Below are positions 1-33,292 of a DNA stretch of 41,850 bases, piece after piece (the stretch's first letter is position 1; the number at the start of each line of letters is the position of its first letter). Below the pieces are notes generated by a model. That model searched no databases. It saw only the letters and a program-made list of their open reading frames with translations, and was not told the origin of the DNA. The translations under genes were made by a program, and so were the position numbers. Source of the DNA: an uncultured Chlorobiaceae bacterium (lineage in GTDB: Bacteria; Bacteroidota; Ignavibacteria; UBA10030; SZUA-254); assembly GCA_964353675.1 (NCBI GenBank), contig CAYGXH010000001.1, positions 1 to 41,850 of the forward strand, written 5' to 3'.

Positions 1-546
1 GTTTACGTTGATTCCGAATGAAGCCCACTCGTTTGCTAAAGCCTTCGTTATCTGTGCTACCGCACCTTTACTTGCCGCATACGAGGGCACCAGGATACCG
101 CCCTGGAAACTCAGGAGCGATGCGACGCTGATAATTTTCCCGTACTTCCGTTTTATCATATCGCGGGCAACCGCCTGGCTGAGGAAGAAAAGCGTTTTCG
201 TGTTTACCGCCATGACATCGTCCCAGTCTTTTTCCGTAAAATCGATCGCAGGCGTGCGGCGGATTATTCCTGCATTATTTATAAGTATATCGATCTTCCC
301 GAACGCTTTCACCGACTGCTCGATGATCATGGGGATCGGATCTTTCGTCGCGAGGTCGGCACGTATGGTAATCGACTTCATGCCGAGTTTTGCAATCAGA
401 TTCTTAGTTTCCTCTGCATCCGTGCGATCAACGAGTACGACATCGGCTCCCGCTTCTGCCAGACCTACTGCCATCCCCTGTCCCAGACCCGTACCCGCAC
501 CGGTGACGATCGCTGTCTTACCTGTCAGGTTAAAAATATTCTGCAC
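1..546 (-). CDS. kduD: 2-dehydro-3-deoxy-D-gluconate 5-dehydrogenase (KduD-type SDR); 3' end cut by window edge
   Basis: Missing from the ORF track because it runs off the window. Reverse translation from GTG 546-544 gives VQNIFNLTGKTAIVTGAGTGLGQGMAVGLAEAGADVVLVDR...ILINNAGIIRR...EKDWDDVMAVN...SLLSFQGGILVPSYAASKGAV...ANEWASFGINVN. It has the TGxxxGxG Rossmann motif, NNAG, and the YxxxK catalytic motif, and closely resembles E. coli KduD blocks. GAGGA lies about 7 nt upstream of the GTG. The + ORF 8..586 is its antisense shadow. Confidence 0.85.
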   Translation of the reverse strand, partial: MQNIFNLTGKTAIVTGAGTGLGQGMAVGLAEAGADVVLVDRTDAEETKNLIAKLGMKSITIRADLATKDPIPMIIEQSVKAFGKIDILINNAGIIRRTPAIDFTEKDWDDVMAVNTKTLFFLSQAVARDMIKRKYGKIISVASLLSFQGGILVPSYAASKGAVAQITKALANEWASFGINVN

Positions 547-577
547 GATAATATCCTCATTTAATTATTTTATACCC

Positions 578-621: not shown

Positions 622-1800
622 TTATTCCTTAATCTCAATAATTAGAGGTGATTCAAGATTATTTAAATAATTTTCCAGATATTGATTCCATTCTTCCATA
701 TTTTTAAAATCGCCGCTTCGCGTCCAGCCGGCTCCGGTGTAGTACGTAAATGGCGCCCCGGTCTTAGCAGAGCAAACAGCATAAACCTGGACACTGTCTT
801 CGTACACCCTCAATAATCTTTTATCCGGAATAACAATGCCGGTTCCGAGGAATTCATTCACCGGATCAGCATCGGTGGGTCCCCACACGGAAATACCGCC
901 ATCCTTTCCGATCTTATGGACTGAAACGCCGTTTCGCTTCACGAGACCGCAAACCAGGTTAACGGGGAGTCCGGACGCCGCTGCGATAATTACATTTTCA
1001 ATTTTGTTCAGGTTACTGCCGGCATCGAGAGTAAATTTTTTGATCTCAAGGTATTTTTCACCGCCGACATCGATGCCGGGATAATAGACTTCAAATATCG
1101 TTCTCAACGGTCCGTTCGCAATGATGCGGTAATAAGAAAACAGTCCTGCCTGATACACCTTACCGTCAAGAAGAATCGCCGTGCCCCCGCATCCGAGCGT
1201 TTTACCGACCAGGAAGAAGTCGGCGCCCTCTCCGTGATCAACATGGTACGAGACTCGCTCTTTCCCTTTCAGCGAATCGCCTTCGTACCATTTGTCGATA
1301 ATCTGGTATCTTACCCGCTTTACCAACACATCAATTCCATTGAAAACATCTCCTGCCAGCGGGGAGCCGTAAATTCTGTACGCGATCCGGTCATTTTCCC
1401 ACGCGACATCTTTTCTCGGCAGTGGGTACTTTGCATTCACATACGATTGAGCGGCTATTTTTCCTTTATGTGTTTCTACGGAAAACCATTTTTCCTCTCC
1501 AGGTTTAAAATTACTCATGAACAGGAGGTTTTCCGGAATACCGTCACAGTTTTCATCGACAGCCTGCGAGGTGACTTCTCTTTGAGTCGTTTTATCGATA
1601 ACAATCACATTGCTATCCGCAGATCCGACCGGCAACCTGAGATCCTGCCACATTATGCTCACAATTGCGTTTTGTCGTTCAAGTTGTGAAGGATTGGTTA
1701 CAGTTATGCGAATCCCGCTATCACCGCCGTATGAAATGGCGGAGATCAAACACAGGAGGATTAAAAACCGGGTATTTTTCATTTTCTGATATATTATCAT
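622..1800 (-). CDS. DUF4861-family secreted protein (pectin-locus associated, function unknown)
   Basis: A signal peptide appears if the start is ATG 1782 (MKNTRFLILLCLISAISYG). Motifs WENDRIAYRIYG, HVDHGEGADFF and LGCGG match my recollection of DUF4861 proteins that sit next to kduI/kduD in FCB pectin loci. Confidence 0.65.
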   Translation of the reverse strand: MIIYQKMKNTRFLILLCLISAISYGGDSGIRITVTNPSQLERQNAIVSIMWQDLRLPVGSADSNVIVIDKTTQREVTSQAVDENCDGIPENLLFMSNFKPGEEKWFSVETHKGKIAAQSYVNAKYPLPRKDVAWENDRIAYRIYGSPLAGDVFNGIDVLVKRVRYQIIDKWYEGDSLKGKERVSYHVDHGEGADFFLVGKTLGCGGTAILLDGKVYQAGLFSYYRIIANGPLRTIFEVYYPGIDVGGEKYLEIKKFTLDAGSNLNKIENVIIAAASGLPVNLVCGLVKRNGVSVHKIGKDGGISVWGPTDADPVNEFLGTGIVIPDKRLLRVYEDSVQVYAVCSAKTGAPFTYYTGAGWTRSGDFKNMEEWNQYLENYLNNLESPLIIEIKE

Positions 1801-4237: not shown

Positions 4238-5815
4238 TCAATGACGTGAAAATGGATCCAGATGTTTTTTAAAATGCCTGATGAGTGTCTGGTAATGAAG
4301 CTCCTCATTTTCGATCAGGCAATTCATGAAGCGCTCGCGGAACAGAAATTTTCCCTCTTCGTTTCGTTCAGTCAGGACTTTCCCGAATGTTACATGAAAT
4401 ACCTGACGCGCATCATGATCCTCGAACAGCGATAATAACTTCTCGTCTGAGCAATCCTTGCCCGCGGGTACGCGATTAATCTGCGCGGTTACATGATAGG
4501 ATTTGCGCTGATCCTCATATTGTTCCCTGGAATAATCCAACATCTCCCTGAGGAGCGGAGGATTAACCTTTGCTATAGTGCGCAGCGCTTCAAGGTAACT
4601 CGTTCCGGCAGTTTTCACATGAACGTTCCCCTGATGAAGCGATCCGATTACCTTATACACGCTGAATTTATCGCTCCCCGAATGAATGCTTATCTTATAT
4701 GGTCCAACAATCTGAGAAATAGCGGCGTGCTGTTTGTATTCAGCTTCGAATGCGGAAAGATTGCCCTTGTAATCAACTCCTTTTTCAAAATCACCGATAA
4801 AGCGTGGCGCCAAACTGACAATCTTGACACCCATTCTCTTGAGCTCATTCGCAACGAAATAATGTTCGAATGGTGTTGTGGGAATATCTGTCTCGTCAAC
4901 GGATAATTCCACTTCTGACGGCAGAGAGGCGTACCGATCTGTGAGGTGACGGTACATTTTCCTTGCATGTTCTATTACTGCGCCGTACTTCAGGAAAGCA
5001 CGTGCAACAGCTTCAGCGTCCGGTGTCAGCGCAACGTCTGCATTGAGCCTGATGGTTTTGGAGACGTACCGGGAATTCACATCATCGAGTTTGAGTCCGC
5101 CCGTATCGAGCTGTTTTGCCCTTTGGACGACATCCCCAATCGGAAGCGAAACGGCTTCATTGACGACGTGCACGCTCGGATCAAATGTATACATAGTAAA
5201 TCCGACTTTCGCGTATCGGTCGATGTCCTCGGTAGTCTTTAGGTGATCGGCATCCGCTCCAAATCCTTTGGTATATCCTTCCTGCAGCACTGCCCACGTT
5301 GCTGCATCGAGAACTTCCTCAGCTGTGCGCTGTGTCCGTTCGAGTTCACGGACAGATTGCTGAGCCAGAACAGGTCTCATGTGCGAACCGGCAAGAGACT
5401 GTATGTGAGCCGGGTTCGCGATGCCAAGCCTGTCGCCGAAACCAAATGAATCAGCGGTGCCTACCACGACCGGTCGTGTGAAGGGAAATAATTCGCGTAT
5501 CTTTTCCGCATTCCGGTGATCCAGAGGACACTGCTCCGCGTGGATGCCGTTACCAAATACATCCGGAGATACATTCTCTCCGTTGAACGTGATTTTATCC
5601 TTACTGTTGTCTGTTCTCCTCGCGATATAAAGATATTTACCGCTTTTATGACGACCGATGAAAAACAACGTATCCCCGAGCATCATCATCGATAATTTAT
5701 AGATACTGATCGTTTGTCCGTTGGATCCGTAGATTATAGTATGGGGATCATGTTTCTTCGATCCTTTCAGGAGCATTTCCTTAAGCTGCATTTGAGCCAT
5801 ATTAGAACCTTTCAT
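4238..5815 (-). CDS. uxaE: Tagaturonate/fructuronate epimerase (UxaE family)
   Basis: SFGFGDRLGIANPAH, LAQQSVRELERTQRT and GFGADADHLKT blocks are characteristic of the UxaE TIM-barrel epimerase family described for the Thermotoga hexuronate route. It lies immediately downstream of uxaC. Confidence 0.75.
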   Translation of the reverse strand: MKGSNMAQMQLKEMLLKGSKKHDPHTIIYGSNGQTISIYKLSMMMLGDTLFFIGRHKSGKYLYIARRTDNSKDKITFNGENVSPDVFGNGIHAEQCPLDHRNAEKIRELFPFTRPVVVGTADSFGFGDRLGIANPAHIQSLAGSHMRPVLAQQSVRELERTQRTAEEVLDAATWAVLQEGYTKGFGADADHLKTTEDIDRYAKVGFTMYTFDPSVHVVNEAVSLPIGDVVQRAKQLDTGGLKLDDVNSRYVSKTIRLNADVALTPDAEAVARAFLKYGAVIEHARKMYRHLTDRYASLPSEVELSVDETDIPTTPFEHYFVANELKRMGVKIVSLAPRFIGDFEKGVDYKGNLSAFEAEYKQHAAISQIVGPYKISIHSGSDKFSVYKVIGSLHQGNVHVKTAGTSYLEALRTIAKVNPPLLREMLDYSREQYEDQRKSYHVTAQINRVPAGKDCSDEKLLSLFEDHDARQVFHVTFGKVLTERNEEGKFLFRERFMNCLIENEELHYQTLIRHFKKHLDPFSRH

Positions 5816-5845
5816 ACACCACTGTTATAGATGTGAATCAGCTAT

Positions 5846-7285
5846 TTAAAAAAAATCAAAATATCGTCTTGCATTATTGTAGCAAATATCGTTTACCATA
5901 TTACCTACGAGATCAATATCGTCCGGTATCAGACCCATTTTCATTTCCCTCCCGAGAATTTCACACAGAATTCGTCTGAAATACTCATGCCTCGGATAGG
6001 AGAGAAAACTGCGGGAGTCTGTCAGCATTCCGACGAACTGACTTAACAAGCCCATATTTGACAGCGCATTGAGCTGGCGCTCTATGCCGTCTTTCTGATC
6101 CAGGAACCACCACGCACTTCCATACTGAATCTTACCCGGGATTTTACTATCCTGAAAGTTTCCGATAAGTGACGCGATAATTTCATTGTCAGCCGGATTG
6201 AGATTGTATACAGTTGTCTTTGCGAGCGAATTCCTGTCGTCGAGTCTGGCAAGGAGCCGCGCCAGCGGTTGGGCGATCGCATAGTCACCAATTGAATCAT
6301 AGCCGGTATCGGGACCGAGTTCGCGGTACATCCTCGGATTCGTATTCCTCATCGCTCCGAGGTGGAACTGCTGGACCCAGCCAGCCCGGTGGTCCATCAG
6401 ACACAATTCCAGAAGCACAGCAGATTTAAACTTAGCGCATGAAACCGGATCGATAGGCTTACCGGTTAATCCGTCGGAGAATATTTTACCAATTTCACTT
6501 TCATTGAATTCCTCTACGTACACAGTTTCGAGTCCGTGGTCCGACAGACGACATCCCTGTGAGTGAAAGAATGCATGTCTTTTACGCAGGGCTTCGAGAA
6601 AATCCTTATACGACGTTATCTGGATATCGGAAGCGGCGCTGAGCTTTTCAACGTATGTCTTGAACGCCGCGCCGCGTTCGACATTCATCGCCATATCAGC
6701 CCTGAAAGCTGGCAGGACCCGCACAGGAAATGTTTTGTCTTTCTTTAAGTGCAGGTGATACTCCAGCGAATCGATCGGATCGTCGGTTGTGCAAACGACA
6801 TCCACATTAAATTGTTTGATAATTCCGCGTGTAGAAAAATCACTCTCAGCCAACTTCGCATTGCACCGTTCCCAAACCTGTTTTGCCGTTTTTTCATTAA
6901 GGAGAACATCCGAAATACCGAAGGGGCGTTTCAGTTCCAAGTGTGTCCAGTGGTAGAGAGGATTGCGCAGTGTCTTCGGAACGGTCTGCGCCCATGCTTG
7001 AAATTTTTCCCAATCGGAAGCATCACCAGTTATATACTTTTCCGGAACACCGAACGTCCGCATTGCCCGCCATTTGTAATGATCGCCGGCCAGCCATATC
7101 TGCGTCATGTTTGCAAAACGCCTGTCTTCGGCAATCTCCTTAGGAGGTACATGACAGTGATAGTCGATGATGTGCTGGTTTTTCGCAAACCGATGGTACA
7201 GCTCGACTGCTCTGTCGTTTGTAAGAAGAAAATTTTCTGTTATGAATACATCTGCCATAATCTGCTCCGCATTAAATTTAATCAA
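5846..7285 (-). CDS. uxaC: Glucuronate/galacturonate isomerase
   Basis: FITENFLLTNDRAVELYH, IIDYHCHVPPKEI, GDHYKWRAMR and QFHLGAMRN give full-length similarity to UxaC. The track start is TTG 7285. ATG 7258 (MADVFITENF) is more plausible. Confidence 0.95.
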   Translation of the reverse strand: MIKFNAEQIMADVFITENFLLTNDRAVELYHRFAKNQHIIDYHCHVPPKEIAEDRRFANMTQIWLAGDHYKWRAMRTFGVPEKYITGDASDWEKFQAWAQTVPKTLRNPLYHWTHLELKRPFGISDVLLNEKTAKQVWERCNAKLAESDFSTRGIIKQFNVDVVCTTDDPIDSLEYHLHLKKDKTFPVRVLPAFRADMAMNVERGAAFKTYVEKLSAASDIQITSYKDFLEALRKRHAFFHSQGCRLSDHGLETVYVEEFNESEIGKIFSDGLTGKPIDPVSCAKFKSAVLLELCLMDHRAGWVQQFHLGAMRNTNPRMYRELGPDTGYDSIGDYAIAQPLARLLARLDDRNSLAKTTVYNLNPADNEIIASLIGNFQDSKIPGKIQYGSAWWFLDQKDGIERQLNALSNMGLLSQFVGMLTDSRSFLSYPRHEYFRRILCEILGREMKMGLIPDDIDLVGNMVNDICYNNARRYFDFF

Positions 7286-8367
7286 CGCTTTATCCTTGCT
7301 GAACCGCCGCTCATTACATGTTTAATTTCTTCGAGAGTCACCATACTTGTATCACCGCGTGTACTCTGCAGAAGAGCGCCGTGCGCCGCTCCCATGTCAA
7401 CACACTCCTGAGGTGACATTCCGTGCAATAATCCGTATATAAGTCCGCTGCAGAAGCCGTCGCCGCCTCCGACACGATCTTCTACTTCCAAACCAGGGTA
7501 TTTTTTAGATTCGAAAAATTGCCCGTCGCAGTACAGGATCGCCGACCAATTATTCACCAATCCGCTGACCACTTCTCTCAGTGTTGTCCCGACTACCTGA
7601 ATATGCGGATAGGCGGATACAACTTTTTTCACCATTTTTTTATATGCCTCGACCGGAAGCGACTTCAGAGATTCATCCGTCCCTTCAACGGTAAATCCCA
7701 AAACTTTCTGGAAATCCTCTTCGTTGCCGATGAGAACATCGATAAATGGTATGAGTTTCTTTGTTGCTTCAATCGCTTTGGCGCTCGACCAGAGTTTGCT
7801 TCTGAAATTGAGATCGTAACTCACCGTTGCACCGTTTTCATGGGCGGCCTTCATGGATTCGTACGCGACATCAGCGCATGGCTCGCTTAGAGCGGTAAAT
7901 ATGCCCCCTGTATGAAACCACCTGACTTTTCGTTCGCTGAAAATTCTCTTCCACTGAACATCACCCGCTTTCATGTGTGAAACAGCAGTATGACCACGGT
8001 CGTATAGGCTTAGACTAGGACGGACGCCAATGCCAACCTCGGTAAAATTCAATCCGATTCGATCGGCCCGGCCTGATCCATCGTACGGCACCCAGATGAC
8101 TTCGCTGAGGTCCATTCCCGCTGTCCGCGCGTGGTTTCTAATAAACGCCCCAAGCGGATTATCCACCAGACGGGAAATCCATCCCGCACGCATCCCATAG
8201 CGTGCCAGTGCATAGGATACATTGTATTCCCCGCCGCCCGCATAGACTTCAAAGTAGGGTGAAAGCTCAATCCGCTGATGTCCAGGCGGACTGAACCGTA
8301 TCATGCATTCTCCGAGGGAGAGAATATCCAGGCCTTTTTCCGCCGCCTCTTTTATTTTCATTGTCAT
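7282..8367 (-). CDS. kdgK: PfkB-family sugar-acid kinase, 2-dehydro-3-deoxygluconokinase-like (copy 1)
   Basis: Ribokinase-like fold motifs: LSLGECMIRFSP, GGGEYNVSYALARYG, and the C-terminal DRVGGGDGFCSGLIYGLL (GxGD catalytic/anion-hole motif). It ends GGSARIKR. Confidence 0.75.
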   Translation of the reverse strand: MTMKIKEAAEKGLDILSLGECMIRFSPPGHQRIELSPYFEVYAGGGEYNVSYALARYGMRAGWISRLVDNPLGAFIRNHARTAGMDLSEVIWVPYDGSGRADRIGLNFTEVGIGVRPSLSLYDRGHTAVSHMKAGDVQWKRIFSERKVRWFHTGGIFTALSEPCADVAYESMKAAHENGATVSYDLNFRSKLWSSAKAIEATKKLIPFIDVLIGNEEDFQKVLGFTVEGTDESLKSLPVEAYKKMVKKVVSAYPHIQVVGTTLREVVSGLVNNWSAILYCDGQFFESKKYPGLEVEDRVGGGDGFCSGLIYGLLHGMSPQECVDMGAAHGALLQSTRGDTSMVTLEEIKHVMSGGSARIKR

Positions 8368-8410
8368 ATATTAATTCTTTCTTATGTAAAAATTTCTATC
8401 ATTCCTGACA

Positions 8411-9493
8411 TCAGCGCTGGATACGTGCTGAGCCGCCTTTGGCGAATGCCCGTACCTGTTCGACTGTTGCCATCGTTGTATCTCCGGGATATGTCGTTAC
8501 CATCGCCCCATGTGCCCAGCCGAGTCTGACAGCTTCCTCAGGCGTCTCTCCATTCAGCAATCCGAAGATGAAGCCGCTGGCAAATCCATCACCCCCGCCG
8601 ACCCGGTCCAGAACATCTAACTCGCACGTAGGCGCAGAATAGGTCTTGCCGGTTATCCAGGCAACGGCGCTCCAGCTGTGGTGATTTGTAGAGTGAACTT
8701 CCCTGAGTGTTGTAGCGACAATCTTTACCTGCGGATGTTTCTGGACAACTTTATCGATCATCTGTAAGAAGACAGACGGATCGAGTTTCGATTTAGCGGC
8801 AACCTCCGGTCCGGGTATTCCCAATCCTTTCTGTAGATCTTCTTCATTGCCAACCAATACATCCACATTCTCAACTATCCGATTGATGATTTCTCCTGCC
8901 TTCTTTTCACCGCCCCAGATACTCCAGAGCTTTTCTCGGAAGTTAAGGTCGAAGCTAACTATCGCACCCGCTGATTTTGCCGCCTTCATCGCCTCGATGA
9001 TCAATTCCCCGGTTGTAGCCGACAGGGAAGCAAATATACCACCGCTGTGAAACCATCGCACTCCGCCGGTGAAGATTGCTTTCCAGTCGAAATCTCCGGG
9101 TTTCAGCAATGCACCAGCTTCATTCGACCGGTTGTAGAACACAACGGGCGGGCGAACGCCGTAGCCGCGATCGCTATAGACCGTTGCCATATTGGGACCA
9201 TTTACCCCGTTATGTTTGAAGTGTTTATAAAACGGTTTGACACCCATAGCCCGTACCCGTTCGGCTATCAGATCACCAATGGGATAATCGACCATTGCCG
9301 TAGCAATGGCAGTATTCATGCGGAAACAGTCGGCAAGGTTCGCGGCAACATTGTACTCACCGCCGCTCACATGAATATGGCATTCAGTCGCCTTCCTGAA
9401 TGGATAGATCCCCGGATCGAGGCGATGTACAAGAGCGCCAAGACTCAACAGGTCGATAGCGCCGGTTTTGGGAATCTTTAATTCATTACTCAT
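8411..9493 (-). CDS. PfkB-family sugar-acid kinase, KdgK-like paralogue (copy 2), substrate uncertain
   Basis: Same architecture as copy 1 (LSLGALVHRLDP, SGGEYNVAANLA, DRVGGGDGFASGFIFGLL, ends GGSARIQR), but clearly diverged across the substrate-lid region. Confidence 0.7.
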   Translation of the reverse strand: MSNELKIPKTGAIDLLSLGALVHRLDPGIYPFRKATECHIHVSGGEYNVAANLADCFRMNTAIATAMVDYPIGDLIAERVRAMGVKPFYKHFKHNGVNGPNMATVYSDRGYGVRPPVVFYNRSNEAGALLKPGDFDWKAIFTGGVRWFHSGGIFASLSATTGELIIEAMKAAKSAGAIVSFDLNFREKLWSIWGGEKKAGEIINRIVENVDVLVGNEEDLQKGLGIPGPEVAAKSKLDPSVFLQMIDKVVQKHPQVKIVATTLREVHSTNHHSWSAVAWITGKTYSAPTCELDVLDRVGGGDGFASGFIFGLLNGETPEEAVRLGWAHGAMVTTYPGDTTMATVEQVRAFAKGGSARIQR

Positions 9494-9523
9494 AAATTTT
9501 ACCTCAGTTCTTTTTTCCTTATT

Positions 9524-10795
9524 TCATTTGTTTATTTCACCAAAGGGATCATCATTCAGGCGATGGAGTATTTCTCCGGCTTTAGGGATATACAGGATGC
9601 CTTGCTTCTCTTGATTTTTCCATTCCTCCGGATTGATGCTCAACGGATCCCTGTAGCCGAGATTAATATGTTCACACATCTTTTCTGAAATACCGGTTGC
9701 CAGCACAACATTGATACGCGGCGATTCAACTCCGTCGGCGTAACTGCCAATTCCCTTCACGTGAGTCGAATGCGCAACAACACCTTTCGGAATATTTTTA
9801 AAAATATCCATCTGCTTTACGAAGTAATCACGGACGTGATATCCAATCCGCTCTATTATTGATCCGTGCGTCACGGAAATTTCTCTGATATGTGGTGCGT
9901 AGATAATTAACTCACCGCCGTCTGCGACTACAGGCTCAAGTTTATAAGCGCATTTCCCGCCTGTCCAGAGTTCATCGTACATACGAGGTGCACATGAGAG
10001 CACATTCGTAAAAGGGCGTTCCATGTACACAATGTGAATCTGATTGGAGAGATCCGCAGCGGCGGACCACGCCTCCTCAGGCGTACCGCAGTATAAACCT
10101 GCGAGATCGCTTCCGGTTACGACAAGACTCATGCAGAAGCGCTGTATCGTAACGAGTGCTGCAGCCGCATCGACTACCTCCCGCACAGGCGTCCACTTTT
10201 TGCCGATGATGCGCGGATTGGTGATCAACGCACCAAGCCAGTGAAACATATCGATGATTTCCTGCCCTGAAATTCCCGGAAACAGATATTTGTTTCCGCC
10301 AGAAAAACCTACCACTTCGTGCGGGAATGTGGGACCGATAATGAGAATAACATCATACTCGAACACAAGCTTGTTGATCGTAACATTCACCGGTTCTTTC
10401 ATCATGCCGCCGGATATTTCATCGATACGCGAAGCGCTGATAGCCCCGATCGAATGCAGATTGTTTTTATCTTTCCAGTTATGATTAAAAATCCGAGTCT
10501 TCGGGTACTTAGTACTACGCTCTCCGGGCTTAAGTCCCAGCCGTTTATCGATAGCTTCATCCGTCATGGGCGGATGAGTACCGAGAGCGATCAGAAAGTC
10601 GATAGCACTGCCTTGAGGTATCAGCGTTTCATAGAGTACCCTGAACATTACATCGATCGGAGCAGTCCTAGTATTATCGGGGATTACGGCAATGATTCGC
10701 TTGCCTGTTAACCTCTCGCGTTCAACGAATTCCGAGCAGATCCGTCGAATCTCTTCTTCCCTTAATATGGAATTAATCGAACCGTTGCCGATCAA
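9524..10795 (-). CDS. LarA-family (DUF2088) nickel-pincer-nucleotide-dependent 2-hydroxyacid racemase/epimerase homologue
   Basis: Motifs: IPDNTRT (D40-x-T-R43), ALGTHPPM (H74), FPHEVVGFSGGNKYLFPG (H159, K169), IIDMFHWLGA (H185). The H-to-K spacing of 10 and the K-to-H spacing of 16 equal those of L. plantarum LarA H174/K184/H200. TTG start with GGAG 6 nt upstream. No in-frame ATG or GTG lies further upstream before a stop. Confidence 0.75.
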   Translation of the reverse strand: MIGNGSINSILREEEIRRICSEFVERERLTGKRIIAVIPDNTRTAPIDVMFRVLYETLIPQGSAIDFLIALGTHPPMTDEAIDKRLGLKPGERSTKYPKTRIFNHNWKDKNNLHSIGAISASRIDEISGGMMKEPVNVTINKLVFEYDVILIIGPTFPHEVVGFSGGNKYLFPGISGQEIIDMFHWLGALITNPRIIGKKWTPVREVVDAAAALVTIQRFCMSLVVTGSDLAGLYCGTPEEAWSAAADLSNQIHIVYMERPFTNVLSCAPRMYDELWTGGKCAYKLEPVVADGGELIIYAPHIREISVTHGSIIERIGYHVRDYFVKQMDIFKNIPKGVVAHSTHVKGIGSYADGVESPRINVVLATGISEKMCEHINLGYRDPLSINPEEWKNQEKQGILYIPKAGEILHRLNDDPFGEINK

Positions 10796-10833
10796 CGCGA
10801 GCTCCGTTGGATTATACAGTACATAAAAATCAT

Positions 10834-12000
10834 TTATAGGTTACTTTTTCCGTTCACTGAAAAACCAATATTTCCGAGACATTGAACCAGTTCGGTCTGA
10901 GATTTTGCAATTTCAATATCAGTTGCAGCAAATTCCCGTCGCGTGGGATATTCGGCGCGAAGCTTACTAAAGTACTTTTTTCGTTCTTCCGGATTCAAGT
11001 TTAAAACCTTACGCAGGTTTGCATCATCGCTTTCAATATTGTAGCACTTTCCGACTATTTCCCGGAGCACTTTTATGTTATCGTTTTCCGGATTCCGTAG
11101 ACGTATTTTCGGTACATCCGGCGGTGGTAACTTACCCTCACTGTTCCAGGTCTGATTGGCTTTAAGATATCGGCAAACCGCTTCGTAGATGCTAACCGCC
11201 CCGTTTGTTTTACCCTCGACTGAATAACCGGCGATATGCGGTGTTCCAATGTCAATCATCTGCAAAATATCCCCATTAATATCCGGTTCGTTCTCCCACA
11301 CATCAAGCACTGCCGTACGGAGGTGATGTATGCGGAGTGCGTTCAGGAGCGCTTCGGTTTTTACCACCAGTCCACGTGAAGTATTGATAAGAATCGAATG
11401 AGGTTTCATCGCAGCGATGCGTTTCTCATCGAATAAATAATGGGTAGCATCGATTCCTTCATGCGTCAGCGGAACATGCAATGTGATAATGTCCGCATCC
11501 ATCAGGTCATCGAGTGAAACGAAATGTGGGTCGCCGTCCATACGTTGAAGCGGGGGATCATTCTGCAGTACTCTCATTCCGAGCGCAGTCGCTTTTCGGA
11601 CAACCTTGCTCCCCACATTTCCTACGCCGACGACACCTAGCGTGGTATGTCGAAGGTCAAGTCCCGATCGTTGCGCCAGCACGAAGATTGCCGCAACAAT
11701 ATATTCAGCTACAGAATTTGAGTTGCAGCCGGGAGCGTACGCAAACCGTATTCCCTTTGAAGAGAGGTATTGGAGAGCAACGTGATCATACCCGCTCGTA
11801 GCAGTACCAATAAATCGCACCTTGCTGCCTTCCAGCAATTCTTTACCTATTTTCGTAACGGAGCGTACTATAAGGAAGTCCGCATCGTGGACGGTCTTCG
11901 GAGTGATTGCCTGGCCGTCGACGAGGCGCACTTGTGCTATGCCGCTGTACATCGACTCAACGAAAGGAATATTTGCATCTGCCACGATCAAAGTGTTCAT
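10834..12000 (-). CDS. pdxB: 4-phosphoerythronate dehydrogenase-type D-2-hydroxyacid dehydrogenase
   Basis: Colinear with E. coli PdxB along its length: LIVRSVTKIGKELLEGSKVRFIGTATSGYDHV, APGCNSNSVAEY, VVGVGNVGSKV, DVWENEP, IGTPHIAGYS. The PdxB-specific C-terminal dimerisation domain is also present (YNIESDDANLRKV, FSKLRAEYPTRREF). Confidence 0.8.
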   Translation of the reverse strand: MNTLIVADANIPFVESMYSGIAQVRLVDGQAITPKTVHDADFLIVRSVTKIGKELLEGSKVRFIGTATSGYDHVALQYLSSKGIRFAYAPGCNSNSVAEYIVAAIFVLAQRSGLDLRHTTLGVVGVGNVGSKVVRKATALGMRVLQNDPPLQRMDGDPHFVSLDDLMDADIITLHVPLTHEGIDATHYLFDEKRIAAMKPHSILINTSRGLVVKTEALLNALRIHHLRTAVLDVWENEPDINGDILQMIDIGTPHIAGYSVEGKTNGAVSIYEAVCRYLKANQTWNSEGKLPPPDVPKIRLRNPENDNIKVLREIVGKCYNIESDDANLRKVLNLNPEERKKYFSKLRAEYPTRREFAATDIEIAKSQTELVQCLGNIGFSVNGKSNL

Positions 12001-12006
12001 ATTAAC

Positions 12007-13467
12007 TTATGCAGTATAAACTGATGATGCAGTATCTCCGCCATGGCCCGTCCAATTTGTATGGAAAAATTTTCCGCGTGGAGTATCAATTCGTTCGTAT
12101 TGATGGGCACCGAAGTAATCCCGTTGCGCCTGCAGAAGGTTTGCGGGCAACCGGCCGCAGCGCAATCCGTCGTAGAACGCAAGCGCTGTGGCATGTGCCG
12201 GAATCCAGATTCCGTGAGTCATAGCAGTTGCAATAACCCGGCGCCATCCGTCCTGCGCTTGCTTCATTTTCTCCTGGAAAAACCGATCAAAGAGAAGGTT
12301 TGATAAATTTGGTTCACGTTCGAATGCTTCTTTGATCTTGCCTAGAAAAACCGATCTGATGATACAGCCGCCCCGCCAGAGAAGCGCGATCCCGCCAAAG
12401 TTCAATTTCCATCCATACTCTTTCGCTGCTTCCTGCATGAGCATATATCCCTGTGTATATGAGACGAGCTTGGAGGCGTACAGCGCTTTTTCGAGGTCAT
12501 TTATAAAAGTTACCCTATCAACTACCGGATGCATGGCCGGACCGGCCAGTTCTTTGGATGCTTTCACGCGTTCATCTTTCATTGCTGAAAGGCAGCGTGC
12601 CAAAACTGCTTCGCTGATGAGAGTGAGTGGTATACCCAGGTCAAATGCAGCCACACTTGCCCACTTGCCGGTACCTTTCTGGCCTGCGGTATCGAGTATT
12701 TTTTCTATCAGGGGTGTTCCGTCGGTGTCCTTATGTGCAAGAATATCCCGGGTGATCTCAATGAGGTAGCTGTTCAGATCACCCTCATTCCATTTCCTGA
12801 ATACCTCATGCATTTCATCCGCCGTCATTCCGAGGAGAACCTTCATCATGTGATATGACTCGGCGATCAGCTGCATATCCCCGTACTCAATACCATTGTG
12901 CACCATTTTTACAAAATGTCCGGCTCCGTCGCTTCCTACCCAATCACAGCACGGCGTCCCGTCGGCAACCTTAGCGGCAATCTTCTGGAAGATCGGTTTC
13001 ACATGCTCCCACGCCTGCGGTGAACCGCCCGGCATAATTGAAGGTCCCTTCAGAGCGCCTTCCTCGCCGCCTGATATTCCCGTCCCGATGAAGGAATATC
13101 CCTTACTTTCGAGGTATTTTACTCTACGAATTGTATCGGGGAAATGTGAATTGCCGCCATCAATCAGGATATCATTCGTCTGCAAAAACGGGAGAATCTT
13201 CTCTATTATATCATCGACGGCTTTGCCGGCAGGGACCATAAGCAGAATTCTGCGGGGTTTTTTCAGTGATTTGCAGAGCTCATTAACTGAACTCACAGTG
13301 ATGATACTTTTACCGGCTGCAGCTCCCGCCATGAACTTACCGGCTTTCGATAAATCGAGGTCAAATCCGGCAACGGAGAAACCTTTACTTGCCATGTTGA
13401 GGGCAAGGTTTTGTCCCATGACACCCAAACCTACAATTCCTATATCTGCATTATTCATTATCATCAT
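12007..13467 (-). CDS. gnd: 6-phosphogluconate dehydrogenase, decarboxylating
   Basis: IGIVGLGVMGQNLALNMASKGF (NADP Rossmann), GHFVKMVHNGIEYGDMQLIAE (6PGD signature), LLQAQRDYFGAHQYERID. The stop lies 6 nt before the pdxB start. Confidence 0.95.
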   Translation of the reverse strand: MMIMNNADIGIVGLGVMGQNLALNMASKGFSVAGFDLDLSKAGKFMAGAAAGKSIITVSSVNELCKSLKKPRRILLMVPAGKAVDDIIEKILPFLQTNDILIDGGNSHFPDTIRRVKYLESKGYSFIGTGISGGEEGALKGPSIMPGGSPQAWEHVKPIFQKIAAKVADGTPCCDWVGSDGAGHFVKMVHNGIEYGDMQLIAESYHMMKVLLGMTADEMHEVFRKWNEGDLNSYLIEITRDILAHKDTDGTPLIEKILDTAGQKGTGKWASVAAFDLGIPLTLISEAVLARCLSAMKDERVKASKELAGPAMHPVVDRVTFINDLEKALYASKLVSYTQGYMLMQEAAKEYGWKLNFGGIALLWRGGCIIRSVFLGKIKEAFEREPNLSNLLFDRFFQEKMKQAQDGWRRVIATAMTHGIWIPAHATALAFYDGLRCGRLPANLLQAQRDYFGAHQYERIDTPRGKFFHTNWTGHGGDTASSVYTA

Positions 13468-13488
13468 CCTTTTAAAAGAGCATACAAG

Positions 13489-14322
13489 TTACACACCGCT
13501 GTAAGCAGAAAATCCGCCGTCCACCGGTAAAATAATGCCTGTCACAAAAGACGACAGCGGTGACAGCAGCCAGAGTGTTGCACCAAACAGATCGGCCGGG
13601 TCGCCGAATTTACCCATGGGTGTGTGATCAAGAATTTTTTTACCACGCTCCGTCAGTTGTCCGGTGTCCTTATCGGTCAGTAGAAATCTGTTCTGTGCCG
13701 TAAGGAAAAATCCGGGAGCAATAGCATTCACGCGAATATTGGGTGAATACTCCTGCGCCATATGGACAGCCAGCCACTGTGTGAAGTTACTGACGCCTGC
13801 CTTTGCAGCCGAGTACGCTGCAATTCGTGTGAGCGGCCTGAATGAATTCATGGAGGAAATATTTACGATAGTTCCTTTCTTGCGCTCTGCCATGTGCCGC
13901 CCGACGATCTGCGAGGGAATGATAGTTCCCATAATATTCAGATCGAAAACAAATTTCATTGCTTCCGGAGGGAGATCAAAGAATGACGCAGTCGGATTAG
14001 TGGTTGCTTTCGGATTATTACCTCCCGCTCCGTTGATGAGCGCATCGATCTTCCCGAATTCTTTAAGAACCTCATCCATTGCTCTCTTCATCATTTCAGG
14101 CTGCAAGACATCACCGTTGACGACGATAGCTCTGCCAACTTTCGAATCGAACCTTTTCACAACCTGCTCTGCCATGGCAGGGTCGCGATCTATGATTGCC
14201 ACGTTTGCATTACAACCGGCGAGCAGACAGGCCATCTCGCCGCAGAGTACACCGCCACCCCCTGTGATAATGACCGTATAATCCGTGAAATCGTATGCTT
14301 TACTCACATCCGCGAGATTCAT
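13489..14322 (-). CDS. uxuB: SDR-type fructuronate reductase / D-mannonate oxidoreductase-like
   Basis: VIITGGGGVLCGEMA, INGAGGNNPKATT, NISSMNSFRPLTRIAAYSAAKAG, VNAIAPGFFLTAQNRFLL and PVDGGFSAYSG match the classical-SDR mannonate-reductase subgroup seen in Bacteroidota uxu loci (recalled, not searched). Confidence 0.65.
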   Translation of the reverse strand: MNLADVSKAYDFTDYTVIITGGGGVLCGEMACLLAGCNANVAIIDRDPAMAEQVVKRFDSKVGRAIVVNGDVLQPEMMKRAMDEVLKEFGKIDALINGAGGNNPKATTNPTASFFDLPPEAMKFVFDLNIMGTIIPSQIVGRHMAERKKGTIVNISSMNSFRPLTRIAAYSAAKAGVSNFTQWLAVHMAQEYSPNIRVNAIAPGFFLTAQNRFLLTDKDTGQLTERGKKILDHTPMGKFGDPADLFGATLWLLSPLSSFVTGIILPVDGGFSAYSGV

Positions 14323-14355
14323 AATATGATCCTTCTTTCGATAAAGTGATGTTTG

Positions 14356-15675
14356 TTACAATTCGAGTTTCACCGGTTCAATTTTTGGAACTAAGAGGTG
14401 AAAAATTCCGAGCGCCAACAAATATGCAGATCCTGAGATGATAAAGAGTATCATGTAGCTGCCCGTCAATTCCAGGATATACCCCGCTATTGTAGAGATG
14501 AGCATTCCTCCCACAGCGCCTGCCATTCCCCCGATCCCAACGATGGACCCGACGGCTTTCTTAGGAAACATATCAGATACGGTCGTGAATATATTTGCCG
14601 ACCATCCCTGGTGTGCAGCTGCTGCCAGGCCAATCAGTCCGACGGCAATCCACATATTTGATGCAAAACTTGCCGTTACGATCGGTACGATGCAGATTGC
14701 ACAAATCAGCATTACTAATTTCCGCGATCGGTTAATCGGCATTCCTCGTTTTATGAAGGCAGACGACAACCATCCGCCGCCGATGCTTCCGACCGTTGTC
14801 ATCATATAGATGACGATGAGCGGAAGACCTAATTGCGAGATATTCAAACCATAATTCGAATTAAGGAACTTCGGCAGCCAGTACAGATAGAACCACCAAA
14901 TAGGGTCGGTGAGGAATTTCCCAACCACGAACGCCCATGTTTGCCGGTAACCGAGCAAACGCTTCCATGGAATTTTTCCTACTTCTTGTTCCTCAGGATC
15001 AGAGAGAATGTGATCTAGTTCCGACTTACTGATTCGTTTGTGCAGTTCCGGTTTCTCATACAGAAGCCACCAAAAAATGACCCAAATAAAACCTATTGCC
15101 CCCGTTACAATGAATGCCATCTGCCACCCGTAGCTTATCGTCAGCCACGGGACGACAAGAGGTGCGAATACTGCGCCGATATTCGCACCAGAATTAAAAA
15201 TACCGGTTGCGAGAGCCCTTTCCTTCTTTGGGAACCACTCTGCGGTTGCCTTAATTGCCGCGGGGAAATTAGCCGACTCACCGATACCAAGCGCAAATCG
15301 GGCGGTAGCAAAACCAAAGGCCGTCTTCACCAGCGAATGTCCCATTGCAGCCAGACTCCAGACCACAATGGCTACCGTAAATCCAATTTTTGTTCCGTAC
15401 TTATCGATCAACCGTCCGGCAAACAACAAACCGATTGCATACGCGGCTTGAAAAGCGACAACTATGTAACCGTATTCGATTTCATTCCATCCGATCTCTT
15501 TTCCGAGTACCGGGGCAAGAATTCCGAGTATCTGCCGATCTATATAGTTCACTGTTGTTGCAAAGAAAAGCAACGCGCAAATACTCCAGCGAAGATTCCC
15601 GACCTTTTGTGTTACAGCTGTATTTTTATCGGAGTTCGTATATTGTTGTTCCTGTTGTGTCATAGATATTTTCAT
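14356..15675 (-). CDS. exuT: MFS hexuronate transporter (ExuT / ACS family)
   Basis: Hydrophobic 12-TM profile. NYIDRQILGILAPVLGKEIGW and the GRLIDKYGTK loop are typical of ExuT-like permeases. Its start is 1 nt after the stop of the upstream gene. Confidence 0.85.
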   Translation of the reverse strand: MKISMTQQEQQYTNSDKNTAVTQKVGNLRWSICALLFFATTVNYIDRQILGILAPVLGKEIGWNEIEYGYIVVAFQAAYAIGLLFAGRLIDKYGTKIGFTVAIVVWSLAAMGHSLVKTAFGFATARFALGIGESANFPAAIKATAEWFPKKERALATGIFNSGANIGAVFAPLVVPWLTISYGWQMAFIVTGAIGFIWVIFWWLLYEKPELHKRISKSELDHILSDPEEQEVGKIPWKRLLGYRQTWAFVVGKFLTDPIWWFYLYWLPKFLNSNYGLNISQLGLPLIVIYMMTTVGSIGGGWLSSAFIKRGMPINRSRKLVMLICAICIVPIVTASFASNMWIAVGLIGLAAAAHQGWSANIFTTVSDMFPKKAVGSIVGIGGMAGAVGGMLISTIAGYILELTGSYMILFIISGSAYLLALGIFHLLVPKIEPVKLEL

Positions 15676-15676
15676 A

Positions 15677-18181
15677 TTATTTAAGAATGATCAATTTCCG
15701 TGTTTGTGTGAAGTTACCTACGCTCAACCGGTAAAAGTACATTCCACTCTGTACACCCTCCGCATTCCAATGGACAGTGTACTCACCCGGCTGTTTTAGT
15801 TCATTCATCAGCGTAGCCACTTCCCTCCCCAGCATATCGAAAACTTTCAACGTCACAAATGATCCGCCAGAAAGCTGGCGGGCAGGCAAATGACCCGCCT
15901 GCGTTCCGGGTGTATACTGGCTAACTTCGGCGGGCAGGCCAATGACAAATGATATTTTAGTTGTCGGATTAAAAGGATTCGGGTAATTCTGATCAAGATA
16001 ATATGAAGAAACAGAATTCCCGACCATTGTCTCATCACTACCGGGCGGCGGCGGCGGAGTATCTGCGGGCATCTCTGTTCTGATCCGGTTTTGAGCCAAT
16101 ATCTTCCCTCCGCCGGATAAGATGAGTTTTCCGGTTTGAGGCGCTTTAACCCAATATCCCTTTCCCGGATACATTGTATCAGAACTTACGTAACTTCCGG
16201 TATAAGTAAGGAATCCGCTTGTGACCATACCGGGTGGATCACTGGTAATATTAAGGACAAAAATTGGGATGCTGAGGGCACCGATCATATTCCATCCTAC
16301 AGAAACATTTACTGTATCATTCAGATTTGGGGTGCCCCAGACCTTTATATTTTCTTCCTGTGAGAACCTTAGCCAGTATCCGATAGCACATTCGATGGTA
16401 TCTCTCTGAACATAGGTACCTTCAAACGTAAATGCTGCTGATTCAGACGTTGGGAACAGATTGATTTTCCTCGGATCTTCCGATACCGAAGGAAGGGAAA
16501 CCATATTCCATCCCTCATATACAGTAAATATTACACTGTCCTGTCCGAAATGTGCGGTTATATTCTTATCCGCATCCATCGTGACGGTTATCGGATTCTC
16601 CGATCCGCCGGCATCACCGCTCCAACCAATAAAGCTAAATCCGACATCGGGTATTGCCGTCAGTTGAACATTTGTACCATGTTCGAAGATAGTATCCTCG
16701 GGATCTTTTAATATGATCCCATTTTCGGCGCTGATCGTAAGTGTATAGGTATTGATGGAAAATGTTACGCGGATTGCATGATTTCCCTGAACATCGCTAA
16801 AAGTATAGAGTGAAACCTGACCTATGTAAACATCATCAACAATCACACTATCGACATGATAACCGGTATCCGGAGTGAAGTTGAAGGTAGTATCATTTCC
16901 CTGCGGCACTGTAATCATACCTGATGGTGTTATCTGACCGTGTATTCCGGCTGATGCCGTGATTGTATAGGAGAGAGGGTTCGTTCCGCTTTCTAACGCG
17001 CCCAAATCCGGTCCGATACCGTTGTACGGAAATCCGACGTCAGTACCGCTATTGATGAGATCGCTTCCCGTCGCCAACCGCAGAAAATCATTTGTCGAAA
17101 GGGTTCCGTCACTATTGCGGGGTGCATGTGCAAGTGAAGTATCAGTGCTAAGAAAATCATCGGCGGCTACGGTGAATCCCTGCCAACTGTTTGTGGTTTG
17201 AACAGCGCCCGTGTTTATCGAAATGTTACCCGACCCGGAGATGTTGTTGATCAGAGTATCCTGCCCAACGCCAGGTGTTTCCGCGAAGGCAAAGTTATTC
17301 CCTCCGTTTCGCCACGCTGTATTATTATAGAGAGTTACACCTGCAGTATTGTGGTTTTGATCAAATCCTTTGGATTTATTATCAAAAGCGATACTGTGAG
17401 TAACACGGTGGGCTGCAGGGATGTAATTACCGCCAACCTTTATACCATTGCCATCCCCCTGGAAAGAGAGGTCACCCCAAATATTATACCCATTGTGGAA
17501 TGCCCAGCAGCTGTCTATGAGTACTCCATTCTGTCCTTCATAGAGATCCCATCCATCGTCTGAATTGTTCCATGCCCGGCAGCCATGGAATTCATTTCCC
17601 GGTCCGATATCAAGCTTTGGTGCAAATCCATCGGCGTTCTCACCATGCGTTAATGAATCGTAATTATCATACGAATCACAATTAACCACTACATTGTAAC
17701 CGCCCCCTCCGCTTATTTGTAATCCCGTATCTTTGTTTTTATATAGTGTGCAGTTTACAACTATATTATAATCTCCGGTGATGTATATCCCGTTATCCCC
17801 TGCATATCGTATTGTTAGTCCCTGAATATGCCAATAGTCTCTTGATACATACAATCCCCGCGAGGATGAAGAATAAGATTGGAGGGCAAAGTCGAGAATT
17901 GGAGTTTCCCCAGGATAAGCCCAGAGTTTAATATGCTGACCGGAAAGACCGCTAATACCGGTTTGAATAGTAGTTGAAATATTATATATCCCGTCACGGA
18001 GATATATCAGATCCCCGGCAGACACAACGCTCATAGCTTTCTGGATTGTTCTATAAGGATGATCGATTGAACCATCACTCGAGTCACTACCCGTGGGGGA
18101 CACATAAATCTGAGTAAATGATAACGTTGAAAGGAGCATTAACAACAGGAGTATAAACGTAAATCTTTTTTTCATAACCAC
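15677..18181 (-). CDS. Secreted right-handed beta-helix polysaccharide lyase-like protein (PL9-like), T9SS cargo
   Basis: Signal peptide from ATG 18175 (MKKRFTFILLLLMLLSTLSF). N-terminal IYVSPTGSDSSDGSIDHPYRTIQKAMSVVSAGDLIYLRDGIYN. Core HGENADGFAPKLDIGPGNEFHGCRAWNNSDDGWDL...GDGNGIKVGGN resembles PL9 pectate lyases. Two Ig/InlB-B-like repeats follow, then the GWNM module, a PPPPP linker and the NYPNPFNPTT sorting domain. Confidence 0.6.
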   Translation of the reverse strand: MVMKKRFTFILLLLMLLSTLSFTQIYVSPTGSDSSDGSIDHPYRTIQKAMSVVSAGDLIYLRDGIYNISTTIQTGISGLSGQHIKLWAYPGETPILDFALQSYSSSSRGLYVSRDYWHIQGLTIRYAGDNGIYITGDYNIVVNCTLYKNKDTGLQISGGGGYNVVVNCDSYDNYDSLTHGENADGFAPKLDIGPGNEFHGCRAWNNSDDGWDLYEGQNGVLIDSCWAFHNGYNIWGDLSFQGDGNGIKVGGNYIPAAHRVTHSIAFDNKSKGFDQNHNTAGVTLYNNTAWRNGGNNFAFAETPGVGQDTLINNISGSGNISINTGAVQTTNSWQGFTVAADDFLSTDTSLAHAPRNSDGTLSTNDFLRLATGSDLINSGTDVGFPYNGIGPDLGALESGTNPLSYTITASAGIHGQITPSGMITVPQGNDTTFNFTPDTGYHVDSVIVDDVYIGQVSLYTFSDVQGNHAIRVTFSINTYTLTISAENGIILKDPEDTIFEHGTNVQLTAIPDVGFSFIGWSGDAGGSENPITVTMDADKNITAHFGQDSVIFTVYEGWNMVSLPSVSEDPRKINLFPTSESAAFTFEGTYVQRDTIECAIGYWLRFSQEENIKVWGTPNLNDTVNVSVGWNMIGALSIPIFVLNITSDPPGMVTSGFLTYTGSYVSSDTMYPGKGYWVKAPQTGKLILSGGGKILAQNRIRTEMPADTPPPPPGSDETMVGNSVSSYYLDQNYPNPFNPTTKISFVIGLPAEVSQYTPGTQAGHLPARQLSGGSFVTLKVFDMLGREVATLMNELKQPGEYTVHWNAEGVQSGMYFYRLSVGNFTQTRKLIILK
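15680..15988 (-). other. T9SS C-terminal sorting domain (type A) with an insertion of about 20 aa
   Basis: NYPNPFNPTTKISFVIGLP[AEVSQYTPGTQAGHLPARQLSGGS]FVTLKVFDMLGREV...GMYFYRLSVGNFTQTRKLIILK. Confidence 0.8.
15959..16513 (-). repeat. Diverged third copy of the GWNM...GYW(L/V)K two-fold module plus poly-Pro linker
   Basis: GWNMVSLPSV...AIGYWLRF...GWNMIGALS...GKGYWVKA...PPPPP. It aligns with the copies at 21665..22222 and 26437..26994. Confidence 0.7.
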
Positions 18182-21385: not shown

Positions 21386-21418
21386 TACTTCTCATTCTCT
21401 TTACTCATTACTCTTTGC

Positions 21419-33180: not shown

Positions 33181-33292
33181 ATTGTATCTCCTTTTATAAA
33201 TTGTTGATTAGTGTCTGATACCGACGAAAATGTTTGAGAATAAAATTTCGCCTTAATTTTAATTATGTCTTTTTTTTCCAATTATATTTTCT

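Follow-up and report, generated by a model that had tools for sequence, protein, structure and literature searches.

A pectin-associated gene block of an uncultured Chlorobiaceae bacterium as a candidate GntE-type branch from hexuronates to pentose phosphate

Gene content of the hexuronate block

A cluster of hexuronate genes in an uncultured Chlorobiaceae bacterium (assembly GCA_964353675.1, contig CAYGXH010000001.1, positions 1-41,850, forward strand) raises the question of what becomes of D-mannonate when the genes for making it stand beside those for a LarA homologue, two PfkB kinases and the decarboxylating 6-phosphogluconate dehydrogenase Gnd, and not beside the gene for the mannonate dehydratase UxuA. 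The window analysed here is this entire 41,850-bp contig, so a gene missing from it says little about the genome. Our answer, to which we give a probability of roughly 0.5, is that the block forms the catabolic core of a locus for pectin utilisation and follows the Thermotoga-type (GntE) hexuronate branch, in which mannonate would be epimerised to D-gluconate, phosphorylated and passed to Gnd.

Gene identities were established with Pfam and NCBIfam profiles, Pfam being applied to all open reading frames (ORFs) of at least 100 aa, and by tblastn with Escherichia coli seeds. The large ORFs of the window are all on the minus strand, and nine of them form the co-directional block, in the following order:

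14356-15675, minus strand: ExuT-like hexuronate transporter of the major facilitator superfamily (MFS) (PF07690, 230 bits; 34% identity to E. coli ExuT over 360 aa, E 5e-67)
13489-14322, minus strand: fructuronate reductase / D-mannonate oxidoreductase of the short-chain dehydrogenase/reductase (SDR) type, with UxuB/UxaD function (NF006132, 365 bits, cutoff 281)
12007-13467, minus strand: Gnd (TIGR00873, 736 bits, cutoff 427)
10834-12000, minus strand: PdxB homologue, 4-phosphoerythronate dehydrogenase type, with DUF3410 (NF001309, 430.6 bits, cutoff 434)
9524-10795, minus strand: LarA homologue, GntE-type, predicted nickel-pincer-dependent hexonate 2-epimerase (PF09861, 80.6 bits, cutoff 23.3)
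8411-9493, minus strand: PfkB kinase type 1, predicted gluconate or mannonate 6-kinase (PF00294)
7282-8367, minus strand: PfkB kinase type 2, probably 2-dehydro-3-deoxy-D-gluconate (KDG) kinase, KdgK (PF00294)
5846-7285, minus strand: UxaC uronate isomerase (PF02614, 696 bits; NF002794, 640 bits; 56% identity to E. coli UxaC)
4238-5815, minus strand: UxaE tagaturonate/fructuronate epimerase (PF16257, 561 bits, whole profile covered)

From the MFS gene to uxaE, the gaps are 33, 21, 6, 38, 30, 43, -4 and 30 nt, values that derive from ORF coordinates and are hence minimal. A preliminary description of this DNA had given the same gene order on a single strand with short gaps, which the Pfam and NCBIfam identities bear out. 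It had placed the block at 4238-14322; its nine genes are real, but the exuT-like gene lies outside that range. The arrangement is not due to chance, because it is syntenic in the closest relatives, two contigs (L092 and L093) that encode proteins 64-90% identical to those of the window and that both end inside uxaE, and because its core recurs across phyla.

The preliminary description had also reported no ORF resembling uxaA, uxaB, uxuA or eda in the 41.8 kb, and here tblastn and Pfam agree with it. In searches of the window with E. coli seeds, no match to UxuA, UxaA, Eda or Edd was better than E 0.78, and UxaB is likewise absent from the contig. No KduI was found in the window by tblastn with the E. 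coli seed or by Pfam on the ORFs, and tblastn detected no homologue of FGGY or GntK/IdnK kinases there.

The LarA homologue belongs to the GntE branch

Among solved structures, the LarA homologue best matches 4NAR (E 1.7e-63, full length), with true lactate racemases reaching only about 1e-7; it also matches 2YJG, 5HUQ and 6D6Z. 4NAR is the apoprotein of Thermotoga maritima GntE2 (TM0442, LarAH20), which was shown to be a D-mannonate/D-gluconate 2-epimerase dependent on the nickel-pincer nucleotide (NPN) (Desguin 2020, PMC7583248). Placement of the protein among the LarA subgroups, a check that the preliminary description had proposed, used the reference sequences in Dataset S2 of that study (PMC7583248) and puts it nearest group 19: it is 51% identical to the group-19 protein Trad_0660 of Truepera and 42% to a second group-19 member, as against 34% to TM0442 of group 20, 28-30% to group 18 and 24% to LarA. 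It is not a group-18 member, because it scores 188.3 bits with NF052594, the model for the putative hexonate epimerases of group 18, which has a cutoff of 500.

The catalytic residues D40, H74, H159 and K281 (equivalents of D72, H108, H174 and K298 in LarA) are present, as are the NPN-binding residues R43, K169 and H185 (R75, K184 and H200 in LarA); W186 is conserved as well. Also present is the GntE signature, defined as Glu then Val or Ser after the catalytic His, Trp at the position of LarA Y294 and a small residue before the catalytic Lys (PMC7583248); in the window protein it reads H159-E160-V161, with Trp at the Y294 position within W277-T-G-G-K281. All of these catalytic, NPN-binding and signature positions are invariant in an alignment of 80 homologues. 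By these sequence criteria the LarA homologue is a GntE-branch enzyme (groups 18-20 of Desguin), and its predicted reaction is the interconversion of D-mannonate and D-gluconate or of their 6-phosphates. GntE1, GntE2 and LarAH15, the GntE of Phytophthora, epimerise D-mannonate and D-gluconate in vitro (PMC7583248, PMC11770544), and the preliminary description was thus right that some LarA-family enzymes have this activity. One Phytophthora protein falls in group 18 of the 2020 dataset; if LarAH15 belongs to that clade, groups 18, 19 and 20 each have a characterised member.

Conserved neighbourhoods across phyla

The family of the LarA homologue is large, with 8000 matches, the best 120 of which are listed at 64-80% identity. 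In a collection that holds one genome per species, mostly metagenome-assembled genomes, close homologues occur in at least 596 loci. These come from Bacteroidota, Ignavibacteria, Calditrichota, KSB1, Fidelibacterota, Acidobacteriota and Myxococcota, and further from Verrucomicrobiota, Planctomycetota, Hydrogenedentota, Elusimicrobia, Armatimonadota and Chloroflexota. Co-occurrence of LarA-like genes with gnd and uxaE had been suggested beforehand as a point to examine, and both genes do recur. With 82 loci labelled by tblastn, the neighbours were:

SDR: 43 of 82 loci, the commonest neighbour of the LarA homologue
Gnd: 31 of 82 loci, from over 10 phyla
UxaE: 18 of 82 loci
HAD-like protein: 15 of 82 loci
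Pyrophosphate (PPi)-phosphofructokinase: 12 of 82 loci
UxaC: 11 of 82 loci
PfkB type 1: 11 of 82 loci
PdxB homologue: about 10 of 82 loci
FGGY kinase: 3 of 82 loci
GntK/IdnK-type gluconokinase: 3 of 82 loci (TIGR01313, 179 bits, cutoff 114)
Eda: 1 of 82 loci
UxuA: 0 of 82 loci
UxaA: 0 of 82 loci

In two loci (L005 and L094), four genes stand alone as an SDR-Gnd-LarA homologue-PfkB module with no other hexuronate gene. A Pfam census of 140 unlabelled neighbours revealed no further recurrent family and no UxuA. The kinase adjoining the epimerase is of five interchangeable types and swaps among the PfkB, FGGY and GntK families. This non-orthologous displacement suggests that the modules share gluconate or 6-phosphogluconate as intermediate, the latter being what Gnd acts on.

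Some modules carry additional genes. PPi-phosphofructokinase (PRK14072) is found in those of L011, L017, L021, L022, L032-L034, L036, L047, L067 and L072; its usual companion is an uncharacterised HAD-like protein of about 297 aa with no match in PDB or NCBIfam. A transketolase is encoded in L179. All three look like pentose-phosphate accessories that travel with Gnd. We considered PPi-phosphofructokinase as a hexonate kinase and rejected this, as it scores 367 bits with PRK14072, above the cutoff, and is more likely a pentose-phosphate or glycolytic accessory. In some Acidobacteriota loci (L070, 2238-5224; L041, L049 and L051), what comes after the LarA homologue is, in place of a kinase or Gnd, a molybdopterin oxidoreductase together with a protein of the fatty-acid-hydroxylase family.

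Two PfkB kinases and a parallel KDG branch

The two PfkB kinases of the block are about 40% identical to each other. Orthologues of type 1, at 69-87% identity, come after the LarA homologue in at least 12 loci, and type 1 is far more conserved than its partner epimerase, with more than 120 clusters at 83-93% identity, all of 360 aa. In all three long contigs (L177, L178 and L179), it lies one to three genes from both the LarA homologue and Gnd. The LarA homologues with which it is paired are 49% identical to that of the window in L177 and L178, and 29% identical (group-18-like) in L179. Type 1 thus pairs with LarA homologues of different Desguin groups, and by implication members of groups 18 and 19 can stand in for each other in the module.

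Type 2, in turn, resembles KDG kinase. Its best match among solved structures is T. maritima KdgK (2AFB, E 6.6e-72), to which it scores 245 bits versus 159 bits for type 1, and its scores with the NCBIfam KDG-kinase models are above those of type 1, though all below the cutoffs of these models. It co-occurs with KduD and Eda in L177 and L178 and with Eda in L001. We infer an allotment of one kinase to each branch: type 1 is predicted from these patterns to be the dedicated kinase of the module, a gluconate or mannonate 6-kinase, and type 2 is probably KdgK, serving the KduD branch. Annotation pipelines call both of them KDG kinase, a probable systematic mis-annotation in the case of type 1.

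The preliminary description had implied that a KDG route is absent, and this is not supported. The contig end truncates a kduD gene, which together with the KdgK-like PfkB type 2 indicates a parallel KDG branch. In L177 and L178, Eda follows kduD (gene order PfkB type 1-Gnd-KduD-Eda), and by analogy the aldolase Eda in the window's organism may be encoded just past the end of the contig. Finding Eda off the contig would leave the shunt unrefuted, since this aldolase serves the KDG branch.

The PdxB homologue

The gene immediately upstream of the LarA homologue encodes a protein that scores 285 bits to Salmonella PdxB (3OET), 265 bits to 2O4C and 75 bits to 2-ketogluconate reductase, and its 430.6 bits with NF001309 lie just under the cutoff of 434. 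A PdxB homologue is directly upstream of, or near, the LarA homologue in about 12 other loci from several phyla; most modules, about 70 of the 82, are without one. The idea that these PdxBs form a dedicated paralogue clade was rejected on the evidence at hand: most PdxBs of equal similarity sit in ordinary contexts, including those of human-gut Bacteroidales (41-50%), and PdxBs from housekeeping and from module contexts are equally distant from that of the window (39-50% identity).

In an independent metagenome sample of 80 loci, about nine (L105, L115, L119, L122, L125, L126, L129, L130 and L138) have PdxB beside modules of a group-18-like LarA homologue and Gnd, with PPi-phosphofructokinase and the HAD-like protein also adjacent.

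4-Phosphoerythronate inhibits 6-phosphogluconate dehydrogenase. On the strength of this inhibition one may speculate that PdxB, and perhaps the HAD-like protein, protects Gnd during high pentose-phosphate flux.

Proposed pathway

From this gene set we infer the following substrates and order of steps. Galacturonate would enter through the ExuT-like transporter and be converted by UxaC to tagaturonate and by UxaE to fructuronate, which glucuronate would yield directly, and the SDR would turn fructuronate into D-mannonate. The LarA homologue would then act at C2 before any phosphorylation, giving D-gluconate, from which PfkB type 1 would form 6-phosphogluconate and Gnd would produce ribulose-5-phosphate, CO2 and NADPH. 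Overall, a hexuronate would become a pentose phosphate in a redox-neutral way. In parallel, the unsaturated uronates released by lyases and a GH88 enzyme would reach KDG via KduD, and PfkB type 2 would phosphorylate KDG for an Eda that is expected off the contig.

The sequence of mannonate, C2 epimerisation, kinase, 6-phosphogluconate and Gnd had been put forward in the preliminary description, and it is well supported by the GntE-branch identity of the LarA homologue and by its neighbours SDR, Gnd, UxaE and kinase. We consider it likely that a shunt of this kind operates in one order or the other. That the free acid is epimerised first and phosphorylated afterwards is an evenly balanced call; we favour this order on two grounds: some loci have members of bona fide gluconokinase families in place of PfkB, and activity on the free acids has been shown in vitro.

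Several points weigh against the proposed scheme. We know of no gluconokinase of the PfkB family. The PdxB homologue has no role in the scheme. The cofactor-synthesis genes larB, larC and larE were sought with Pfam and none is on the 41.8-kb contig; 140 ORFs that neighbour the homologues of 80 loci on the same strand, at distances of up to 3.5 kb, include none of them either. In L179, a uxuA gene (14302-15495, minus strand) lies divergently beside a UxaC-UxaE-PfkB type 1-LarA homologue-Gnd module. This neighbour shows that the shunt and the dehydratase route can coexist, so that the shunt need not replace the dehydratase; T. maritima also has both, with a separate kdgAK-uxuBA operon (PMC3750489). 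Finally, the characterised GntEs have Km values of 9-120 mM for free mannonate (PMC7583248, PMC11770544), and extracts of Lactobacillus suebicus epimerised only the 6-phosphate (PMC6978723).

Alternative explanations

The last two points lead to the strongest rival, the L. suebicus type of route with the two steps reversed: PfkB type 1 would be a D-mannonate 6-kinase, and the LarA homologue a 6-phosphomannonate 2-epimerase that supplies 6-phosphogluconate to Gnd. L. suebicus extracts yielded no gluconate from mannonate without ATP, but they made 6-phosphomannonate and interconverted it with 6-phosphogluconate, and a TM0442 homologue, abundant on galacturonate, was named as the candidate epimerase (PMC6978723). 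The preliminary description was therefore correct in its caveat that the 6-phospho form might be the substrate (Valk 2020, PMC6978723). The highest of the Km values, 120 mM, belongs to Corynebacterium glutamicum GntE1, which is the group-19 enzyme nearest the window protein and for which a different native substrate has been suspected (PMC7583248). The very strong conservation of PfkB type 1, its restriction to the module and its distinctness from KdgK also fit a mannonate kinase, and the use of a phosphorylated 2-hydroxy acid by the adjoining PdxB is a weak hint in the same direction.

The kinases found in other loci speak for gluconate, however. GntK/IdnK-type and FGGY kinases stand in for PfkB there; the GntK of T. 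maritima is a gluconate kinase according to the literature, and that of E. coli is reported, in work cited in PMC6978723, not to use mannonate. The active-site signature of the epimerase is the same whatever the kinase type and does not correlate with it (seven C-terminal signature positions that MAFFT misaligned were ignored in this comparison). GntE1, GntE2 and LarAH15, moreover, act on the free acids in vitro. The high Km values and the L. suebicus results keep the reversed order live, and we regard it as possible but doubtful.

A more specific form of the reversed order appears unlikely to us, in which PfkB type 1 would be a dedicated D-mannonate 6-kinase, the LarA homologues of groups 18 and 19 would be NPN-dependent 6-phosphomannonate 2-epimerases, and the recurrent PdxB and HAD-like proteins would be embedded damage control. 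If it were true, genes would have been found for two orphan activities of L. suebicus.

A second explanation dispenses with the shunt. Here gnd and pdxB would be hitch-hiking housekeeping genes, both PfkBs would serve KDG-type substrates, mannonate would be dehydrated by a UxuA encoded elsewhere, and the LarA homologue would act on some other 2-hydroxy acid, such as altronate/allonate, an aldarate or an acid derived from rhamnogalacturonan II. Since the window is one whole contig, uxuA and eda may exist elsewhere in the genome; UxuA adjoins the module in L179, identity does not distinguish the PdxB homologue from housekeeping PdxBs, and KDG kinase is what the pipelines call both kinases. Group 19 has, in addition, been speculated to act on uronic or aldaric acids (Desguin 2020, PMC7583248). 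Against this, Gnd is linked to the epimerase in more than a third of the labelled loci and in more than 10 phyla, including the stand-alone four-gene modules, and this phylum-wide linkage makes hitch-hiking unlikely. Bona fide gluconokinases take the place of PfkB in some loci, none of the 82 neighbourhoods of the genome scan contains UxuA, and the same gene set (operon gnd-uxaRED-gntEK) is pectin-induced in T. maritima (PMC3750489). We consider this explanation distinctly improbable.

The analogy with KguK/KguD drawn in the preliminary description, by which a PfkB would phosphorylate a 2-keto-hexonate and the PdxB-like dehydrogenase would reduce 2-keto-6-phosphogluconate to 6-phosphogluconate for Gnd, can draw on the presence of a PfkB kinase and a D-2-hydroxyacid dehydrogenase beside Gnd, on the recurrence of PdxB directly upstream of the epimerase and on the 2-keto intermediate of the LarA-type mechanism, which might leak, but it is very improbable given that the dehydrogenase matches PdxB (with DUF3410) far better than 2-ketogluconate reductase, that no enzyme of the locus makes 2-ketogluconate and no pathway step yields a 2-keto acid, and that most modules lack PdxB.

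Surroundings of the block and regulation

The remaining features of the window place the block, read as above as the core of a GntE-type branch, among genes for pectin degradation:

about 1-567, minus strand: kduD (2-dehydro-3-deoxy-D-gluconate 5-dehydrogenase), truncated by the contig end (tblastn, 54% identity to E. coli KduD residues 6-184, E 4e-61)
622-1800, minus strand: DUF4861 protein (PF16153, 251 bits)
15677-26068, minus strand: upstream pectinolytic genes encoding a PL9-like lyase, a pectinesterase, a GH28 protein and a giant PL1 lyase with CBM6 (Pfam)
29114-30190, minus strand: LacI-family regulator, a candidate repressor of the locus (Pfam LacI and Peripla_BP)

The pectinolytic genes share the direction of the block, and only 1 nt separates them from the MFS gene. 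By Pfam, the upstream side also holds the LacI regulator and GH88, and the downstream side a GDSL esterase, GH43 and the DUF4861 protein; an ORF at 8-586 on the plus strand is a shadow of the truncated kduD. Sorting tails of the type IX secretion system (T9SS) are found on the PL9-like lyase, the PL1 lyase and several proteins further upstream. The PL1 pectate lyase (21419-26068, minus strand) has 1549 aa and carries, besides CBM6 and its T9SS sorting tail, three InlB-B-repeat-like domains; it is conserved in L092 and L093 with unchanged length.

Signs of induction by pectin or galacturonate are confined to the LacI gene and the co-directional pectinase genes, which suggest it; in L096, too, the module has a LacI gene next to it. 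On the coding strand, every terminator-like site falls inside a gene, with none in the intergenic gaps. A sigma-70 promoter scan gave background level, the consensus being uninformative for an organism of the Fibrobacterota-Chlorobiota-Bacteroidota (FCB) type, and the tRNA and Rfam scans of the window were empty.

The DUF4861 protein is a recurrent neighbour of such genes in pectin loci, adjoining KduD in L096 (647-1972) and UxaC/KduI in L177 (1-204). With kduI missing from the window, it might have a role in 5-keto-4-deoxyuronate metabolism. At 31588-41825 (minus strand) there is a run of genes for proteins with T9SS tails, including a PorV-like protein of 343 aa. The run also encodes a 999-aa CarboxypepD_reg protein in which no Plug or barrel domain was detected, and proteins of 745 and 495 aa with no Pfam match; a SusC/SusD pair is lacking. 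For the pectin locus, these genes may provide an alternative set of outer-membrane proteins for uptake or secretion.

Significance

The preliminary description had proposed a new variant of hexuronate catabolism. The pathway has already been described (Rodionova 2012, as cited in later work; Desguin 2020; Valk 2020), and the window locus is a new example of it in an uncultured, T9SS-bearing FCB-type organism. The shunt leads from galacturonate to ribulose-5-phosphate without net redox cost, which is relevant to anaerobic pectin fermentation and to metabolic engineering (Valk 2020). With epimerase homologues in so many loci and phyla, usually together with SDR, Gnd and a kinase, it is no oddity of Thermotoga or Lactobacillus. 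The main value of the present analysis lies in the breadth of the module, in a PfkB hexonate kinase that is probably mis-annotated and in the question of the order of steps.

Comparison with known systems

The shunt was proposed in 2012 by Rodionova, as cited in PMC3750489, PMC6978723 and PMC7583248, for the UxaR-regulated pectin operon aldH-pelB-gnd-uxaR-uxaE-uxaD-gntE-gntK of T. maritima. Like that operon, the window locus combines UxaC, UxaE, an SDR fructuronate reductase, a LarA-family epimerase, a sugar-acid kinase and Gnd, clustered with pectinases, and the proposed logic from mannonate through gluconate and 6-phosphogluconate to ribulose-5-phosphate is the same. The epimerase is homologous to GntE2 over its full length and identical to it in the catalytic and NPN-binding residues. 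There are also several differences. The window epimerase is only 34% identical to that of T. maritima and nearer group 19, the window kinase belongs to the PfkB family whereas T. maritima GntK is an FGGY kinase, and a PdxB homologue is inserted in the window operon. A KdgK-like PfkB and kduD are part of the operon in the window, while kdgAK-uxuBA is separate in T. maritima; the regulator is of the LacI type rather than the GntR type; and the host is a T9SS-bearing FCB-type organism.

With the GntE groups of Desguin 2020, the window protein has in common the signature D R H H E V K H V W T. K. At the position of LarA V297 it has Gly, as in group 20, where those group-19 sequences that were examined show Ala. 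The 2020 study found larB, larC and larE enriched around group-19 genes, and the window contig lacks them. The window locus does fit the neighbourhood tabulated for group 18, namely SDR (36%), Gnd (32%), a ribokinase-family kinase (16%), MFS, UxaC and KduI (Table S1, PMC7583248).

The hybrid isomerase/phosphoketolase pathway of L. suebicus likewise employs UxaC, UxaE and UxuB to reach mannonate and then 6-phosphogluconate and Gnd, and is a redox-neutral route from galacturonate to ribulose-5-phosphate; in extracts, Valk 2020 found that phosphorylation came first and that the 6-phosphate was then epimerised (PMC6978723). A TM0442 homologue is present in both organisms and is expressed on galacturonate in L. 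suebicus. The two differ in that the kinase-first order was shown in L. suebicus, where the genes are not clustered and the suspected kinases are homologues of gluconate kinase, while the genes of the window are clustered.

The canonical isomerase (Ashwell) pathway runs through UxaC-UxaB-UxaA or UxuB-UxuA, KdgK and Eda, with KduI and KduD. The window shares with it UxaC, the KdgK-like PfkB and KduD, but UxaA, UxaB, UxuA, KduI and Eda are not on the contig. Compared with the Ashwell pathway, the fate of mannonate would here be taken over, or paralleled, by the module of epimerase, kinase and Gnd.

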